Shown: positions 38,276 through 44,157 of the stretch, in pieces
How positions within the stretch are numbered: position 1 is the first letter of the stretch
Layout: every line of letters begins with the position of its first letter
From: a virus
DNA length: 64,000 nt
Virus record (IMG/VR): IMGVR_UViG_3300017760_000001
Location: 64,001 to 128,000 of that record
Strand: one strand, 5' to 3'
The notes under the pieces: model-generated
Seen by the model: only the letters and a program-made list of their open reading frames with translations
What the model was told of the DNA's origin: nothing
Databases searched by the model: none
Program-made: the position numbers and the translations under genes

Positions 38276-38755
38276 ATGGCATATTCGGGCAAATATAAAC
38301 CAAAAAATCCAGAGAAGTATCTGGGGGACGTATCTAACATAGTGTATCGATCACTATGGGAAAGACATGTTATGCGCCACTGTGATAACGACTCTAATAT
38401 AGTCGAGTGGGGATCTGAAGAGATCGTCATACCTTATCTATATGAAGTAGATCGAAAGTATCATCGTTACTTTATGGATTTTGTCATTGTATACAAAAAT
38501 GGTACAACAAAGTTGATTGAAGTCAAACCATTCAAAGAAACACAGAAACCTAAGATAAAAGGTAGACGTACTAAACGTATGTTAACAGAATCGTTTACCT
38601 ATGTCAAGAACCAGAACAAATGGAAGGCCGCATCTGAATATGCAAAAGATCGGGGGTGGGGATTCGAGATCTGGACAGAAAAGGAACTGACGGCCATGGG
38701 TATTATGCCTAAGTCAACTAAACCATTAAAACCTTTTAAAAAACGTAAAAAATAA
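38276..38755 (+). CDS. gp4: Head completion protein gp4 (TnsA-like nuclease fold)
   Basis: YSGKYKPKNPEKYLGD, YRSLWE, HRYFMDF, IEVKP and NQNKWKAA motifs. Confidence 0.96.
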   Translation: MAYSGKYKPKNPEKYLGDVSNIVYRSLWERHVMRHCDNDSNIVEWGSEEIVIPYLYEVDRKYHRYFMDFVIVYKNGTTKLIEVKPFKETQKPKIKGRRTKRMLTESFTYVKNQNKWKAASEYAKDRGWGFEIWTEKELTAMGIMPKSTKPLKPFKKRKK

Positions 38756-38756
38756 G

Positions 38757-38764
38757 TATAAATA
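38757..38764 (+). promoter_or_regulatory. Late promoter TATAAATA, 5 nt before the gp2 ATG
   Basis: TATAAATA-gacgt-ATG. Confidence 0.85.
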
Positions 38765-38769
38765 GACGT

Positions 38770-39375
38770 ATGAGTAATTTATTCAATAGACTGGAACTAC
38801 AGGCATTCCGTGCGGGCGTAACACCTCGTACCAAAGAAAGTCGTGACTGGTTTAGACAGAAAGCATCGAATCTACGTTCGATCAACCGTGAAGCATTGAT
38901 GAAAGAAGATCCGTTGAAAAGACGTGATGCATCAAAGGCGGATAATAGGGAGTTGATTGGTTCTATGCAGATGTTCTTCTATGATCCAAAACATAAGAAG
39001 ACTCTACCATACTACGATGCGTTTCCGTTAGTAATCATTATAGGCCCAGCAGAAGGTGGATTCTACGGTCTAAACTTACATTACTTGCCTCCGATTCTTC
39101 GTGCGAAGTTTCTGGATGCATTGATGGATGTACTCGGTGCGAAGATGACAAAGACTGCAAGGATGCAGTTGACCTATCGCATATTAAAGAAAACCGCAAA
39201 GATGCGGTACTATAAACCGTGTTTGAAACACTACCTGACCGCACATGTAAAAAGTCGGTTCGCAGAAGTACAAACACCAGAGTGGGAGATTGCGACTTTC
39301 TTACCAACTGCACAGTTCAGAAAGGCAAACTCTCAGAAAGTATTCTACGATTCAAGGCAAATGATAGATGGGTAG
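38770..39375 (+). CDS. gp2: DNA end protector protein gp2
   Basis: FFYDPKHKKTLPYYDAFPL, GLNLHYLPP and W..A.FLPTAQF motifs. Confidence 0.95.
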   Translation: MSNLFNRLELQAFRAGVTPRTKESRDWFRQKASNLRSINREALMKEDPLKRRDASKADNRELIGSMQMFFYDPKHKKTLPYYDAFPLVIIIGPAEGGFYGLNLHYLPPILRAKFLDALMDVLGAKMTKTARMQLTYRILKKTAKMRYYKPCLKHYLTAHVKSRFAEVQTPEWEIATFLPTAQFRKANSQKVFYDSRQMIDG

Positions 39376-40072
39376 CAGACTAGGCGACATAGAAGAACTA
39401 AAAGGTTTACTTGGTAAGAGTGGTAACATTCAAAGACCAAATCTTTTTCGTGTAATTTTACCTCCGATAAAAGGGTACAATACCAAAGATCTAAACCTTT
39501 TGTGTAAGGCAGTGTTGATGCCTGGCCGTCAGTTAGGTACACTTGAAAAACAAGTTGGTATGTACAAGTATGATATTGTGAACCAAATGAGTGTGTCCGA
39601 AGTGACCATGACATTTCATGTTCCCACTAATCATACTGTAAAAAACTATTTCAATGAATGGCAAAAAGTGGCATTCAACAAAGGTGAAGTCGGTTACTAT
39701 AAAGAATATGCTCGTGATATAAAGATCGAGACAATGTCTAAGGCTGCGACTATTCCAGTCTTTAACAAACAAATTCCTTTCTTGAAGAAAGTAGACCCAC
39801 TTATTCGTAATCGACTACCAGACATTGGGCCGTTTAAATTGTCGCAAGGTGAGATCGATTTGGATTTGGGTACTAAGGACGAGATGTCCTACAGTTGTAG
39901 ATTAATCGATGCGATTCCCACTACAATGAGTGACACTCAGTTAGGAAATGATCAAGAGAACGCAATCATGGAACTTACAGTATCGTTCAAGTTCAAGGAT
40001 TGGGAGGCAGAGTCCGCAGATGCGAAGAGTATATTCGATAAGATAATTAGTGGCGGACTGAGTTTCTTTTAA
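39368..40072 (+). CDS. Tail-tube family protein (gp54/gp19-like initiator)
   Basis: RPNLFRV, LC..V.MPGR, YFNEW and LIDAIP...LTVSF motifs. Confidence 0.75.
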   Translation: MGSRLGDIEELKGLLGKSGNIQRPNLFRVILPPIKGYNTKDLNLLCKAVLMPGRQLGTLEKQVGMYKYDIVNQMSVSEVTMTFHVPTNHTVKNYFNEWQKVAFNKGEVGYYKEYARDIKIETMSKAATIPVFNKQIPFLKKVDPLIRNRLPDIGPFKLSQGEIDLDLGTKDEMSYSCRLIDAIPTTMSDTQLGNDQENAIMELTVSFKFKDWEAESADAKSIFDKIISGGLSFF

Positions 40073-40128
40073 TCGCACACTAAATATATTTTGATTTAAA
40101 CTATTTCTAAATTATTAGGAGAAATGAA

Positions 40129-40845
40129 ATGGCATTACCAAAGTTAAACACTGCACCGATATATGAATTATCGGTTCCGTCAACAGGAGAGAAGGTCACA
40201 TTTAGACCATATCTTGTTAAGGAGGAAAAGGTGTTGATGATGGCGTTTGAATCTGGTGATCAGAAACAAGCGTTGAAAGCAATCGTCTCTACCATTGAAG
40301 CGTGTGTTCAAGAAAACATTAACGTACATGATTTAGCGACATTTGATGTTGAGTATATGTTTACTCAAATTCGTTCTAAGTCTGCTGGTGAGAAGTCTAC
40401 AGTATTGTTGAAGTGTAAGGAATGTGGTACGCAACACGAATACTCTGTCGATCTAGCTAGTATCAGAGTTGAGATCGGGGAAAGGAATCCAACTGTTGAT
40501 TTGACAGATGAAGTGTCAGTAGAGATGAAGTATCCGCCTTATAAGGCATTGATGGACTCTAACCTAAATGCCGACCAAGTTGAACTTGGAATGTCGATGG
40601 TTGTTCACAGTGTTTCAGCCATTGTTACTAAACAAGGTTTGGACGAAGAAAGAATAGATGCGAAAGATGTATCTAAGAAAGAATTGTACGAGTTCATCGA
40701 ATCGATGACGAGTGATCAGTTTGAGAAAGTTACCAAGTATATCGGTGACCTTCCATCAATGAAACATGAAGCGAAGTTTACATGTTTGAATTGTGAAACT
40801 GAGAATGAAATTGAACTTAAAGGGATATCGGATTTTTTATCCTAA
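40129..40845 (+). CDS. gp26: Baseplate hub assembly protein gp26
   Basis: MALPKL, FRPYLVKEEK, FDVEYMFTQIRSKS.GE, two CxxC pairs and C-terminal GISDF. Confidence 0.94.
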   Translation: MALPKLNTAPIYELSVPSTGEKVTFRPYLVKEEKVLMMAFESGDQKQALKAIVSTIEACVQENINVHDLATFDVEYMFTQIRSKSAGEKSTVLLKCKECGTQHEYSVDLASIRVEIGERNPTVDLTDEVSVEMKYPPYKALMDSNLNADQVELGMSMVVHSVSAIVTKQGLDEERIDAKDVSKKELYEFIESMTSDQFEKVTKYIGDLPSMKHEAKFTCLNCETENEIELKGISDFLS

Positions 40846-41033
40846 ACCTTTCTCATGATAGTCTTGTAAATCATTATAAGACGAATTTTGCAATGATGCA
40901 ACATCATCATTATAGTTTAACAGAACTGGACATGATGATGCCATGGGAGAGGGAAATATACGTAGCTATGTTATTAGAACATGTGAAGGAAGAGAATGAA
41001 AGAATAGAGAAACAAAACCAGCAAAACGGATAA
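40833..41033 (+). CDS. gp51: gp51-like baseplate hub assembly catalyst in the -1 frame relative to gp26 (first ATG at 40893)
   Basis: Not in the ORF track. Manual translation: FFILNLSHDSLVNHYKTNFAMMQHHHYSLTELDMMMPWEREIYVAMLLEHVKEENERIEKQNQQNG*. Confidence 0.88.
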   Translation, partial: FFILNLSHDSLVNHYKTNFAMMQHHHYSLTELDMMMPWEREIYVAMLLEHVKEENERIEKQNQQNG

Positions 41034-41039
41034 AAAGAA

Positions 41040-43181
41040 ATGGCAAGACAGGCGAACATTCAAGGTGCGATCGACAAACTAAGGCTTTCTAATGAGAAGA
41101 CTCTTGGGGAAATCAATGATCGTTCGGGTGAAATTGCATTCAACACACGAACCACTAAGAATCTTATTGGGGACATGTTGGATGGGATGGCGCTTGATCG
41201 TCAAAGATCTCAAGATGACCAAGAGGGCGACGACCGTGGTGGCCCATCTGGCGGTGGAGGCACTCCCCCTCCTGCCCCTCAAGATAACGGTAGTTTTGGA
41301 TTCATCGGGGTACTCGGTGGAATCGTTGCTGGTTTGACTGGTGCGGTTCTTGGTCTTGTCGCTGGTATTGTTAAAACTATTACTCGTCCATTCACTCTAT
41401 TAGCTAAGAGTACAAAGGATTTCTTTAAGAACACTAGGTTAGTTCAGTTTGTACAAGGGAAATTCGTTAGTATGATTACTACGATAAAGGATTTCTTTAA
41501 ACCTGTAACGAACTTCTTTACTAATATTAGTAAAGCATTTAAGGCAGGACTAAGAGGTGAAACCAGAGCAGTCCGTGGTGCGATGGGAAGATTCGTTAGT
41601 CTTCAAAGAGGAATAACTGGTTTCTTTGCTAGCATAGGTAGAATGACGAATAGGTTCATCCTTAGACCATTCAATAGAATCCGAAGAGCAATAGGTTCTA
41701 TCGGTAGAGTAATGAATGGTGCAGCTGCCCAAACTGGTAGGATAGGTCAATTCTTTAGTAGAATAGGTGACGGATTTAGAACGGTCGGTAGACTCTTTAG
41801 TGGGTTTGCCAGAACATTTAATGTTGTATTCAGAGCATTCGCAGTAGTTGGTCGTGTAATTGCACTTCCTATCACAATAATCACTGGTCTTATCGGTGGT
41901 ATCAAAGGTATGTTCGCAGACTTCACCAAGTCCAGAGAAGAAGGTGATGGTCTACTCAAGAGTGTCACTAAAGGTTTCTTTGGATTTATTAAGGGTGCGG
42001 TCAACGGTATCATCATGATGCCTTTAGATCTATTGAAGAGTGGTATTGGTTGGATTGCTGGTAAACTAGGATTCAAGAACTTTGAGAACCTATTGGCTGG
42101 ATTCAGTTTCTCAGGACTGTTCAGTGGATTGGTAGACGGAATTGCCAATGGAGTCTTCGGATTTTTCGGGGGTTTAGTCCAGATCTACAAGGATGCGTTC
42201 AAAGGGGCAATAGAAGGATTTAAAGATGGCGGTATATTTGGCGCAATCTCTGGTTTCTTTGGTTCTATCGCAACAAGTATTAAGAATGTGTTCCTCGGTT
42301 TGATTGAGAAAGTATTCGGAATGTTTGAGGGTGGGGACGATATGTTCGCTGCACTTGGCGAAGGTATTGCGAATATCAAACAAAGTATCAAAGACTTTTT
42401 CATTGGGTTGTTACCAAAACAAGGTTCGTTCATGTCTAAGTTTGTACCCGATTCTGTTTATGAATGGGCGGGTCAACCAGCAGTATCCGAACCAGAGGGT
42501 TCAGAACTACCGACCGAAGAACCACAACAACTAGAAAGTACACCAGAACTTAAAAAGGCGCAGATGAACGCAATTAAGACAGGCGACACAACTGAGTTAG
42601 AGAAGAAGAAAGAAGAACAACGTATGTCTGGGGAAGAGAAACTAAAGGCAGAAATTGATCAACTCAAAGCGAGACTTGAATCAGGAGATACTACCTTTAC
42701 ATGGACTGATGCGGATATTGAAAAGGCTCGAGCTGAGGGTCGTGAATCAGCAGCAGCGTGGATGGAATATGATAATACAGAAGAAGGTCAGGAAGACCAA
42801 ATGGAAGAGATGCGAGAATCTCTCCGTATAAGAGAAATGCAACTTGCGGAATTTAAAGAAAAACAAGCGCAAGAGAAAGCGGACGTTGAAAAATACGGAG
42901 ATCTCGATACCGCTAAACTAGCGAAGATGGACGAAGCTAGACGTGAGAAATTGTTAACAAGATCTAGAGATTTGATGATGAGACACAGTAGAGGTGAAGA
43001 GGTAGATCTCGCAAACAAAGAAAATGCAGAAAGAGCATTAGCTGCAGAAGAGAGAAGACAACAAGCAATGATTGTCGCACCATCTACACAAGTAGTCAAC
43101 AACAACTCTTCTTCAGGGATTGTTATGAGTCAAAACATGCCGGCAGTAGATCCCCTAGATCAATCCTACGGAGTCGGATAA
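41040..43181 (+). CDS. Tape measure-like protein (gp29 position)
   Basis: Long amphipathic G/F/I-rich helical repeats, hydrophobic segments and a VVNNNSS C-terminal motif; follows gp26/gp51. Confidence 0.72.
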   Translation: MARQANIQGAIDKLRLSNEKTLGEINDRSGEIAFNTRTTKNLIGDMLDGMALDRQRSQDDQEGDDRGGPSGGGGTPPPAPQDNGSFGFIGVLGGIVAGLTGAVLGLVAGIVKTITRPFTLLAKSTKDFFKNTRLVQFVQGKFVSMITTIKDFFKPVTNFFTNISKAFKAGLRGETRAVRGAMGRFVSLQRGITGFFASIGRMTNRFILRPFNRIRRAIGSIGRVMNGAAAQTGRIGQFFSRIGDGFRTVGRLFSGFARTFNVVFRAFAVVGRVIALPITIITGLIGGIKGMFADFTKSREEGDGLLKSVTKGFFGFIKGAVNGIIMMPLDLLKSGIGWIAGKLGFKNFENLLAGFSFSGLFSGLVDGIANGVFGFFGGLVQIYKDAFKGAIEGFKDGGIFGAISGFFGSIATSIKNVFLGLIEKVFGMFEGGDDMFAALGEGIANIKQSIKDFFIGLLPKQGSFMSKFVPDSVYEWAGQPAVSEPEGSELPTEEPQQLESTPELKKAQMNAIKTGDTTELEKKKEEQRMSGEEKLKAEIDQLKARLESGDTTFTWTDADIEKARAEGRESAAAWMEYDNTEEGQEDQMEEMRESLRIREMQLAEFKEKQAQEKADVEKYGDLDTAKLAKMDEARREKLLTRSRDLMMRHSRGEEVDLANKENAERALAAEERRQQAMIVAPSTQVVNNNSSSGIVMSQNMPAVDPLDQSYGVG

Positions 43182-43209
43182 AAAAAAGGGGAACCGAAGT
43201 TCCCCCTTT
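43180..43209 (-). terminator. Rho-independent terminator with a C(UUCG)G tetraloop, probably bidirectional
   Basis: Minus strand reads GGGGAAC-TTCG-GTTCCCC-TTTTTTTT, between the convergent tape-measure-like and gp32 genes. Confidence 0.92.
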
Positions 43210-43230: not shown

Positions 43231-44157
43231 CTAGTCTGCTTGTGCCATTTTGGCAAAGTAAGATAGTGTGTCGTCCTCATCATCAGATGATGCAGACTCA
43301 ATCGCAGGCTCTGGAGCCGATACGATTTCTGGTTCCGATGCACTAGTAGCAGGAGCCGCTTCCGCAGATTGCGATAACGCCTCATTCTTCATAGTAGCAC
43401 CTTCACCTACCGAATGACCCAACACAAGTTGTAGACGTGAATTCAGTTCGTCATATGACTTGTATTGTTTCGGATCAACAAACTCCGCAAGGTCGTGGAG
43501 TTGATTGTAAGTCGCCTCTAGTTTAACTTCATCAGCATCAAACAATGCAGACTGTGATTTAAACTCAGATTTGTCATAGTTACGATATCCCGCCACATTG
43601 CGAATCTTCAACTGGAAATCTGCACCAGTCCAAAAGTCGAATGGGTTTACTGGTTCTTCGCCAGGGAATTGTGGTTGCATAACGTCCATCAACTTATCAA
43701 AGATCTTCTTACCATACTCGTACAAGAATACTTTACCCTCGTTCGATGGGTTAGAAGGATCAGACACTACAAGAATGTTTGATACGTAATGGAGTCTACG
43801 CTTTTGTTTACGAGCAGTTTCTTTATCATCCTCGTTACCAGAGTTCCACAGACGTGAGTTCAACTCACCGACTGGATCTTTCTGTCCGATTGATGTCAAA
43901 GACTTTTCGATGTACCATTGACCAGTTGGGCCTTTAAACCCATGATCCCAGTAACGTTCCCAAGGTAGTTCCTGTCCTTCCATTGCTGGAAGAAAACGAA
44001 TGACAGCATAACCGTTACCAGCGTCATCGACAGTTGGTTTCCATTTGCGTTCGTCATCGTATTTGTTTTTGGTTTTCTGGCCACCAGATACTTCTTGTGC
44101 AGCTGAAACCAGTTTAGAGATATCGGTTCTACCCGACTTTAGATTTGAAAAAGACAT
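43231..44157 (-). CDS. gp32: ssDNA-binding protein gp32
   Basis: D.R.WKP..D.AGNGYAVIRFLP, GKKIFDK, NPFDFW.GADF and YRNYDKS motifs; acidic tail. Start set at MSFS (44157) with an AAGG SD. Confidence 0.97.
   Translation of the reverse strand: MSFSNLKSGRTDISKLVSAAQEVSGGQKTKNKYDDERKWKPTVDDAGNGYAVIRFLPAMEGQELPWERYWDHGFKGPTGQWYIEKSLTSIGQKDPVGELNSRLWNSGNEDDKETARKQKRRLHYVSNILVVSDPSNPSNEGKVFLYEYGKKIFDKLMDVMQPQFPGEEPVNPFDFWTGADFQLKIRNVAGYRNYDKSEFKSQSALFDADEVKLEATYNQLHDLAEFVDPKQYKSYDELNSRLQLVLGHSVGEGATMKNEALSQSAEAAPATSASEPEIVSAPEPAIESASSDDEDDTLSYFAKMAQAD

Follow-up and report, generated by a model that had tools for sequence, protein, structure and literature searches.

One gp26-family gene of a marine T4-like phage very probably makes two tail assembly chaperones by a -1 frameshift on six T's

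Judging from its sequence and those of its relatives, the gp26-family gene of an uncultured marine T4-like myovirus very probably yields two chaperones, of 238 and 301 aa, by a -1 slip on six T's close to its 3' end. We give a probability of roughly 0.8 to the full reading, which is that this is a two-product tail assembly chaperone gene whose 238-aa short form is the ordinary translation product and whose 301-aa long form arises by a -1 slip of the ribosome. The source record, IMGVR_UViG_3300017760_000001, is a complete genome of 144,435 bp with terminal repeats, and the neighbors of the phage are cyanophages, Pelagibacter phage Mosig, and Methylophilales phage Melnitz. No phage in the GenBank (INPHARED) collection has a gp26 more than 41% identical to this one. 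The window analyzed here is a stretch of 64,000 nucleotides, positions 64,001 to 128,000 of that record, and it is AT-rich, with a GC content of 38.8%.

The signal is real, well supported, and deeply conserved, but to go by the papers that cite the earlier work, it is a further example of a phenomenon published in 2022. Vladimirov, Gautam and Davidson (Virology 2022) identified gp26 and gp51 as the chaperones of T4-like phages, as related in PMC10885494 and PMC12846349. The first of these, the PRFect paper, summarizes their finding as a short gene and a long fusion gene in some T4-like phages, and the second gives it as the reference for poly-T -1 slippery sequences in the T4-like short-form genes. 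As far as these citing accounts go, their system has the same family (PF12322 plus a gp51 tail), the same logic of short and long forms, and the same poly-T -1 site (PMC12846349), and it differs from ours in no point of principle; what is particular here is the uncultured marine phage and a T_TTT_TTA in place of the commoner T_TTT_TTC. A preliminary description of this DNA had put the gp26-51 frameshift forward, an idea that was anticipated by Vladimirov et al. 2022, as cited in those two papers. An earlier review describes the G-T frameshift as conserved in long-tailed phages "except T4" (Atkins et al. 2016).

The gp26-family gene is flanked by a tube-like gene and a tape-measure-like gene (Table 1). 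In relatives, the counterparts of the tube-like gene are annotated as tail tube or as baseplate tail tube initiator. The downstream gene is probably the tape measure, a call made from weak profile matches (E = 3e-8 at best) and from position, and a pairwise similarity of its product to T4 gp29 was not found. The exact T4-type late-promoter motif ahead of the gp2-like gene is a putative promoter for an operon of the gp2, tube-like, gp26, and tape measure genes; no late-promoter motif and no terminator was found between gp26, the -1 ORF, and the next gene. Two minor observations belong to this neighborhood. The gp4-like product also matches Pfam PF08722, a TnsA-like endonuclease N-terminal domain, with E = 8.6e-20. 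At 43184-43209 there is a strong GC-rich hairpin with T-run flanks that is likely a two-way terminator; it lies between the ends of two convergent genes, the tape-measure-like gene, which ends at 43181, and gp32, which ends at 43231.

Table 1. Features in and around the gp26-family gene (positions in the 64,000-nt window)
Feature	Position	Strand	Evidence or remark
gp4-like gene	38276-38755	+	phrog_218 E = 1.9e-57, head completion protein
T4-type late-promoter motif TATAAATA	38757-38764	+	Exact match; one of 3 on the + strand of the window
gp2-like gene	38770-39375	+	
Tail-tube-like gene (gp54/gp19-like), directly 5' of gp26	39368-40072	+	phrog_45 tail tube, E = 2.5e-31
Shine-Dalgarno AGGAG, 7 nt 5' of the gp26 ATG	40117-40121	+	Read from sequence
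gp26-family gene, 238 aa, short chaperone form (TAC-N)	40129-40845	+	PF12322 E = 2.3e-54; phrog_150 E = 1.8e-58
Shine-Dalgarno-like AAGGG, 8 nt 5' of the heptamer, possible stimulator as in dnaX	40820-40824	+	Anti-SD pairing
Slippery heptamer T_TTT_TTA, recoding site	40833-40839	+	0-frame phase X_XXY_YYZ
-1 extension, 64 codons + stop, gp51-type tail of the 301-aa long form	40839-41033	+	phrog_634 E = 2.6e-28
0-frame stop TAA of gp26	40843-40845	+	TCC (40840-40842) is the 3-nt gap to the heptamer
Weak hairpin, stem of 9 bp and loop of 4 nt, beginning 22 nt past the heptamer, of doubtful significance	40861-40882	+	Folding
Probable tape measure gene, 713 aa, presumed chaperone client	41040-43181	+	Nine PHROG tape-measure/tail families, E = 3e-8 to 2e-3

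The gp26 ORF ends, as had been described, in TCG GAT TTT TTA TCC TAA, and every coordinate given in the preliminary description is correct. Two overlapping slippery heptamers had been read into this end. T_TTT_TTA stands; G_GAT_TTT (40830-36) does not have the form X_XXY_YYZ, since GGA is not a triplet of one base, and it is rejected on sequence, leaving a single slippery site. The -1 frame opens after the TAA that occupies 40818-40820 and stays open from 40821 until the stop at 41031-41033, so that both frames are open over 40821-40845, a stretch that includes the heptamer. The first ATG of the -1 frame is at 40893, codon 18 counted from the shift, with no ATG, GTG, or TTG before it, and the 46-aa ORF annotated as gp51 (40893-41033) is the 3' part of the -1 extension. 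Joining 237 residues of gp26 to the 64 of the extension gives the 301-aa product. The T6 run by itself is not above chance, as 62 runs of at least 6 T's are observed on the + strand of the window where about 50 are expected, and its significance hence comes from the comparison among relatives.

That comparison draws on 80 loci from IMG/VR, with gp26 identity from 92% to 43%, and four isolates. All 83 usable loci have T_TTT_TTN in phase near the gp26 stop, followed by a -1 frame that is open for about 60-67 codons, and neither stop codons nor frame-breaking indels were seen in the -1 ORF of about 95 loci. A set of 55 distinct junctions extends the range of gp26 identity from 92% down to about 24%. 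The six T's, which include a synonymous third position, are invariant and in the same phase in 55/55, and the seventh base of the heptamer can be A, C, G, or T. The codon 5' of the run ends in T in every one of them, whether it is GAT, AGT, TCT, GCT, or AAT, for Asp, Ser, Ala, or Asn. Run lengths are 6 in 39 of the junctions, 7 in 1, and 8 in 15. The gp26 stop ends 3-6 nt past the heptamer in relatives, except for Pelagibacter phage Mosig, where the distance is 27 nt. Of 51 distinct junctions from marine relatives, 14 have both frames open over only 10 nt, the heptamer plus the stop, so any change of frame there is confined to those 10 nt.

The same layout is found in distant T4-like phages of Vibrio, Aeromonas, Pseudomonas, Acidovorax, Stenotrophomonas, Rhizobium, Cronobacter, and Acinetobacter, and also in the freshwater cyanophage S-CRM01. 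The distant relatives mostly have GAT TTT TTC at the junction, and the clade of this phage has T_TTT_TTA, which is less common than T_TTT_TTC. The slippery heptamer is conserved across gp26/gp51 junctions, and wherever relatives have the two in tandem, gp51 is in phase -1 to gp26; the preliminary description had proposed to look for both features. Single distant queries against IMG/VR for heptamers other than a homopolymer found nothing new. A distant relative that stands apart is Listeria phage LIS04 (OQ999172.1; locus L096, 1950-2892), in which a PF12322-like gene follows the sheath and tube genes, in that order, and precedes the tape measure gene. Its gp51-like extension has 102 codons and a weak profile match (E = 0.039), and it lies in the +1 frame after GAG TTT TTT AGT, where it would require a +1 or -2 shift or the loss of one U from the transcript.

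The extension is constrained as protein ahead of its first ATG as well, which was the third point raised in the preliminary description. The 18 codons 5' of the annotated gp51 ATG are as well conserved as the codons 3' of it, and in the -1 frame before the ATG the codon periodicity is 1.11, 1.30, and 0.62 bits at positions 1, 2, and 3. Residues L6, S7, and H8 of the extension are invariant, and L11, N13, T17, N18, and F19 are at least 90% conserved. Mean column identity of the extension is 70% among 33 marine relatives. The alignment to phrog_634, the gp51 profile, begins at residue 4 of the -1 ORF taken from stop to stop, well 5' of the ATG at 40893. The extension is predicted to form three helices, with a pLDDT of 83.8.

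How the two products relate to the proteins of T4 is of interest. The gp26 here scores 184.8 bits to PF12322 (T4_baseplate) over residues 10-237, against a cut-off of 24.5. T4 gp26 (208 aa) is the PF12322 domain alone, and T4 gp51 (249 aa) is a PF12322 domain (residues 1-201, E = 3.9e-52) with a tail at 197-249. T4 gp51 matches phrog_634 with E = 1.2e-23, and BLASTP aligns the -1 extension to its residues 197-249 (E = 1e-4). By sequence likeness and domain order, the 238-aa product would have the architecture of T4 gp26 and the shifted 301-aa product that of T4 gp51. Here one gene would serve for both forms, whereas T4 has genes 26 and 51 apart, transcribed divergently and with no slippery run. 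The complete genome of our phage has one PF12322 gene only, so a gp51-type protein, in which body and tail form a single chain like that of T4 gp51, can be made only through recoding. Conversely, since genes 26 and 51 are divergent in T4, it cannot fuse them, and T4 itself does not use the shift.

The chaperone identity was approached through structure. The AlphaFold2 model of gp26 has a pLDDT of 87.8, and in a search of 48,161 representative solved chains its three best matches are 3FGX, 2OB9, and 3KLU, in that order, with Z = 6.8, 6.1, and 6.1. These Z values are modest; the alignments cover 85-88 residues, all on gp26 residues 1-96, and the next chain has Z = 4.8. The three chains, among which 2OB9 is the HK97 tail assembly chaperone, are the solved tail assembly chaperones (PMC9603447). 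They surfaced only with an exhaustive structural aligner, as Foldseek of the model against the PDB gave no significant match, with 3FGX at rank 50 and the other two missed. On this ranking, residues 1-96 of gp26 are predicted to share the fold of these three chaperones. A Pfam search of gp26 finds only PF12322 and weak zinc-ribbon matches at E up to 0.01. Tail assembly chaperones of this kind are highly diverged, and a missing Pfam match does not exclude membership. As a separate observation, gp26 has four invariant Cys in two C-x-x-C pairs at residues of about 96-99 and 219-222, and these converge in the model as a zinc-ribbon-like module, with weak matches to zinc-ribbon structures and Pfam families.

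In T4, the products of genes 26 (208 aa) and 51 (249 aa) are hub assembly chaperones, and gp51 is needed for hub assembly yet absent from particles (Leiman et al. 2010, PMC3004832). The fold ranking, the gene position, and the T4 genetics agree on the chaperone identity. The preliminary description had equated the pair with lambda gpG/gpGT, and this finds support in the makeup of T4 gp51 as a gp26-like domain plus a tail, in the predicted chaperone fold of the gp26 N-terminal domain, and in the position between tube-like and tape-measure-like genes. Lambda gpG/gpGT, an instance of the -1 frameshift conserved in the chaperone genes of long-tailed phages (Xu, Hendrix and Duda 2004; reviewed in PMC5009743), likewise lies just 5' of the tape measure gene and has its shift site near the end of the first ORF, followed by a short -1 extension. 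It differs in several ways: gp26 has no sequence-level match to the Pfam chaperone families, its body is about twice as long, the four-Cys zinc-ribbon-like module is absent from lambda-type chaperones, and the slippery site is U-rich here and G_GGA_AAG in lambda.

We propose that most ribosomes would translate 40129-40845 and stop, giving the short form. In a minority, the P-site tRNA-Phe (codon UUU) and the A-site tRNA-Leu (codon UUA) would slip by -1 on U_UUU_UUA, and these ribosomes would read on to 41033 to make the long form, an N-terminal body with a three-helix tail of 64 residues. For the general pattern U_UUU_UUN, tandem slippage would involve tRNA-Phe together with either tRNA-Leu or a second tRNA-Phe. 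The short form would be the counterpart of T4 gp26, and the long form that of T4 gp51. If lambda gpG/gpGT and T4 genetics are a guide, many short and few long copies would hold the tape measure protein encoded downstream, the tail domain would link the complex of chaperone and tape measure to the assembly of hub and tube, and the finished virion would contain neither form. The sequence analysis shows the signal, how well it is conserved, the homologies, and a predicted fold; the ribosomal nature of the slip, the ratio of the products, and the binding partners are what we infer in this scheme. In E. coli, shifting at U_UUU_UUA and U_UUU_UUU is weak next to that at A_AAA_AAG (PMC5009743), and such poor shifting of U-rich heptamers is in keeping with a product of which little is required.

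The nearby stop codon and the Shine-Dalgarno-like AAGGG, which lies upstream of the heptamer as the preliminary description had it, are possible helpers of the slip. Anti-SD pairing at the AAGGG position averages -6.2 kcal/mol over 60 loci, against -1.8 in other windows of the same ORFs, a difference that is confounded by conserved (K/E)-G residues; the element is also absent in some relatives. The E/E' genes of phage P2 reportedly have a T-rich shift site. Downstream, the 60 nt at 40840-40899 have an MFE of -8.5 kcal/mol with z of about -1.0. The hairpin at 40861-40882 has a spacing too long for a canonical stimulator, and its pairing across 40 sequences holds in 70% of cells, where shuffles give 66% and slid controls 33-53%. 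For 40 aligned junctions, RNAalifold gives no consensus structure, and none is conserved at the canonical spacing of 5-9 nt. In HIV-1 gag-pol the heptamer U_UUU_UUA is identical, but our site has no comparable stem-loop at 5-9 nt, is read by a bacterial ribosome, and has a different biological role.

The alternative that survives best has RNA polymerase stuttering on the T6 and adding one U to a few transcripts, which would give a long form that differs only in its junction residue, Phe where the ribosomal route puts Leu; we consider this unlikely. It draws on the site being a pure homopolymer in every -1 relative examined, at each of the three lengths, and on there being no strong ribosomal stimulator found at gp26 junctions. 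LIS04 also retains a T6 (GAG TTT TTT) despite its +1-frame extension, and a polymerase able to add or drop a base would cover both the -1 relatives and LIS04. The T-run would then be a frame-neutral switch that also explains relatives with a +1-frame extension. Against this, most of the runs are only six long. Six T's are shorter than the runs known for efficient polymerase slippage in bacteria. The start of the run is at the identical codon phase in 55/55 junctions with the seventh base free, as the wobble base of an A-site codon would be, and in most loci a Shine-Dalgarno-like element is present at about the distance seen in dnaX. The citing paper PMC12846349, for its part, terms the T4-like poly-T sites -1 frameshift slippery sequences. 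Taken together with the case in which both routes operate, a contribution from polymerase slippage on only six T's is slightly less improbable, though still a minor prospect. The heptamer ending in A makes this clade a natural test case, as the two routes give different junction residues: Leu (…DFLIL…) would point to the ribosome, and Phe (…DFFIL…) to the polymerase or to a slip in the P site only. The same distinction of Leu or Phe at the junction tells the shift route in HIV-1 gag-pol (PMC5009743).

Ribosomal slippage within a single gene also has to be weighed against the way such loci are annotated, that is, as two independent genes, a 238-aa gp26 and a 46-aa gp51 starting at the ATG at 40893, with no fusion. 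A Met is found at or near the ATG position (column M22) in at least 90% of the marine relatives, and a separate small ORF is called in 11 of 15 database records with this layout. We regard independent genes as very unlikely all the same, because the first ATG of the -1 ORF ranges from codon 8 to codon 32 among relatives and is without a Shine-Dalgarno sequence, the mean anti-SD pairing there being -0.4 kcal/mol compared with a mean duplex energy of -6.2 kcal/mol 5' of the gp26 ATG over 49 loci. The protein-level constraint on the 18 codons before 40893, invariant residues included, is also at odds with a start at that ATG, which falls inside predicted helix 1 of the tail domain, so that the 46-residue product would lose most of that helix. 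T4 gp51, moreover, bears the same tail on a gp26-like body, and four of the database records leave the gp51 ORF uncalled although the homologous extension is present. Least credible of all is that the -1 ORF is the decaying remnant of a once-fused gene and the T-run merely codes for a conserved D-F-F, since, although D-F-F is conserved as protein, so that part of the run follows from coding, and T6 runs are common in the AT-rich window, F-F is kept in T4 and IT22 with the coding TTC TTT after GAG and needs no T-run, the codon before the run has T as its third base in 55/55 junctions regardless of the amino acid, and an intact, conserved -1 ORF is found from cyanophages through Aeromonas and Rhizobium phages.

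The practical value of a -1 ribosomal slip in this gene is for annotation. As the preliminary description had supposed of current practice, the two parts are treated as independent genes: the long form is absent from 15/15 inspected records with this layout, in which gp51 appears as a stand-alone ORF of 34-60 residues or is uncalled. Gp51 is unannotated in Aeromonas phage Ah1 (L087), Acidovorax phage ACP17 (L089), Cronobacter phage LPCS28 (L093), and Acinetobacter phage SH-Ab 15599 (L094), each of which has the heptamer and a -1 extension of 58-63 codons that matches the extension profile. Two puzzles in the literature concern the same protein. Cyanophage and marine vibriophage gp51 were noted to "lack the first ~200 amino acids," without explanation there, and gp51 was reported "missing only in Aeh1," an Aeromonas phage (Sullivan et al. 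2010, PMC3037559). A frameshift would account for both the truncated gp51 and the apparent absence, the latter probably through an uncalled -1 extension of the Ah1 type.

The distribution of the two layouts gives an indication of which came first. The one-gene layout is found in Kyanoviridae, pelagiphages, Straboviridae other than Tevenvirinae, and several unclassified lineages, and the two-gene layout was seen in Tevenvirinae only. In the latter, T4 and Erwinia phage IT22 have two genes, code F-F within GAG TTC TTT, and have no heptamer; as they keep Phe-Phe without it, the T-run is not forced by the protein. With the two-gene layout restricted to Tevenvirinae and the other widespread, the shift is probably ancestral: on these sequences, one gene with two products is the widespread and probably the original state in the T4 superfamily, and the two genes of T4, where the T-run has been lost, are probably derived. 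A minor observation concerns how gp26 ends in Tevenvirinae, with F-F-E-L-L in T4 (L085, 3803-4429) and F-F-R-L-L in IT22 (L095, 1492-2118). These ends resemble the first -1-frame residues of other Straboviridae, F-F-R-L-x-L, and not their 0-frame ends. On the strength of three residues, the ancestor of T4 gene 26 may have been a long-form gene that was fused already and then truncated shortly past the junction.
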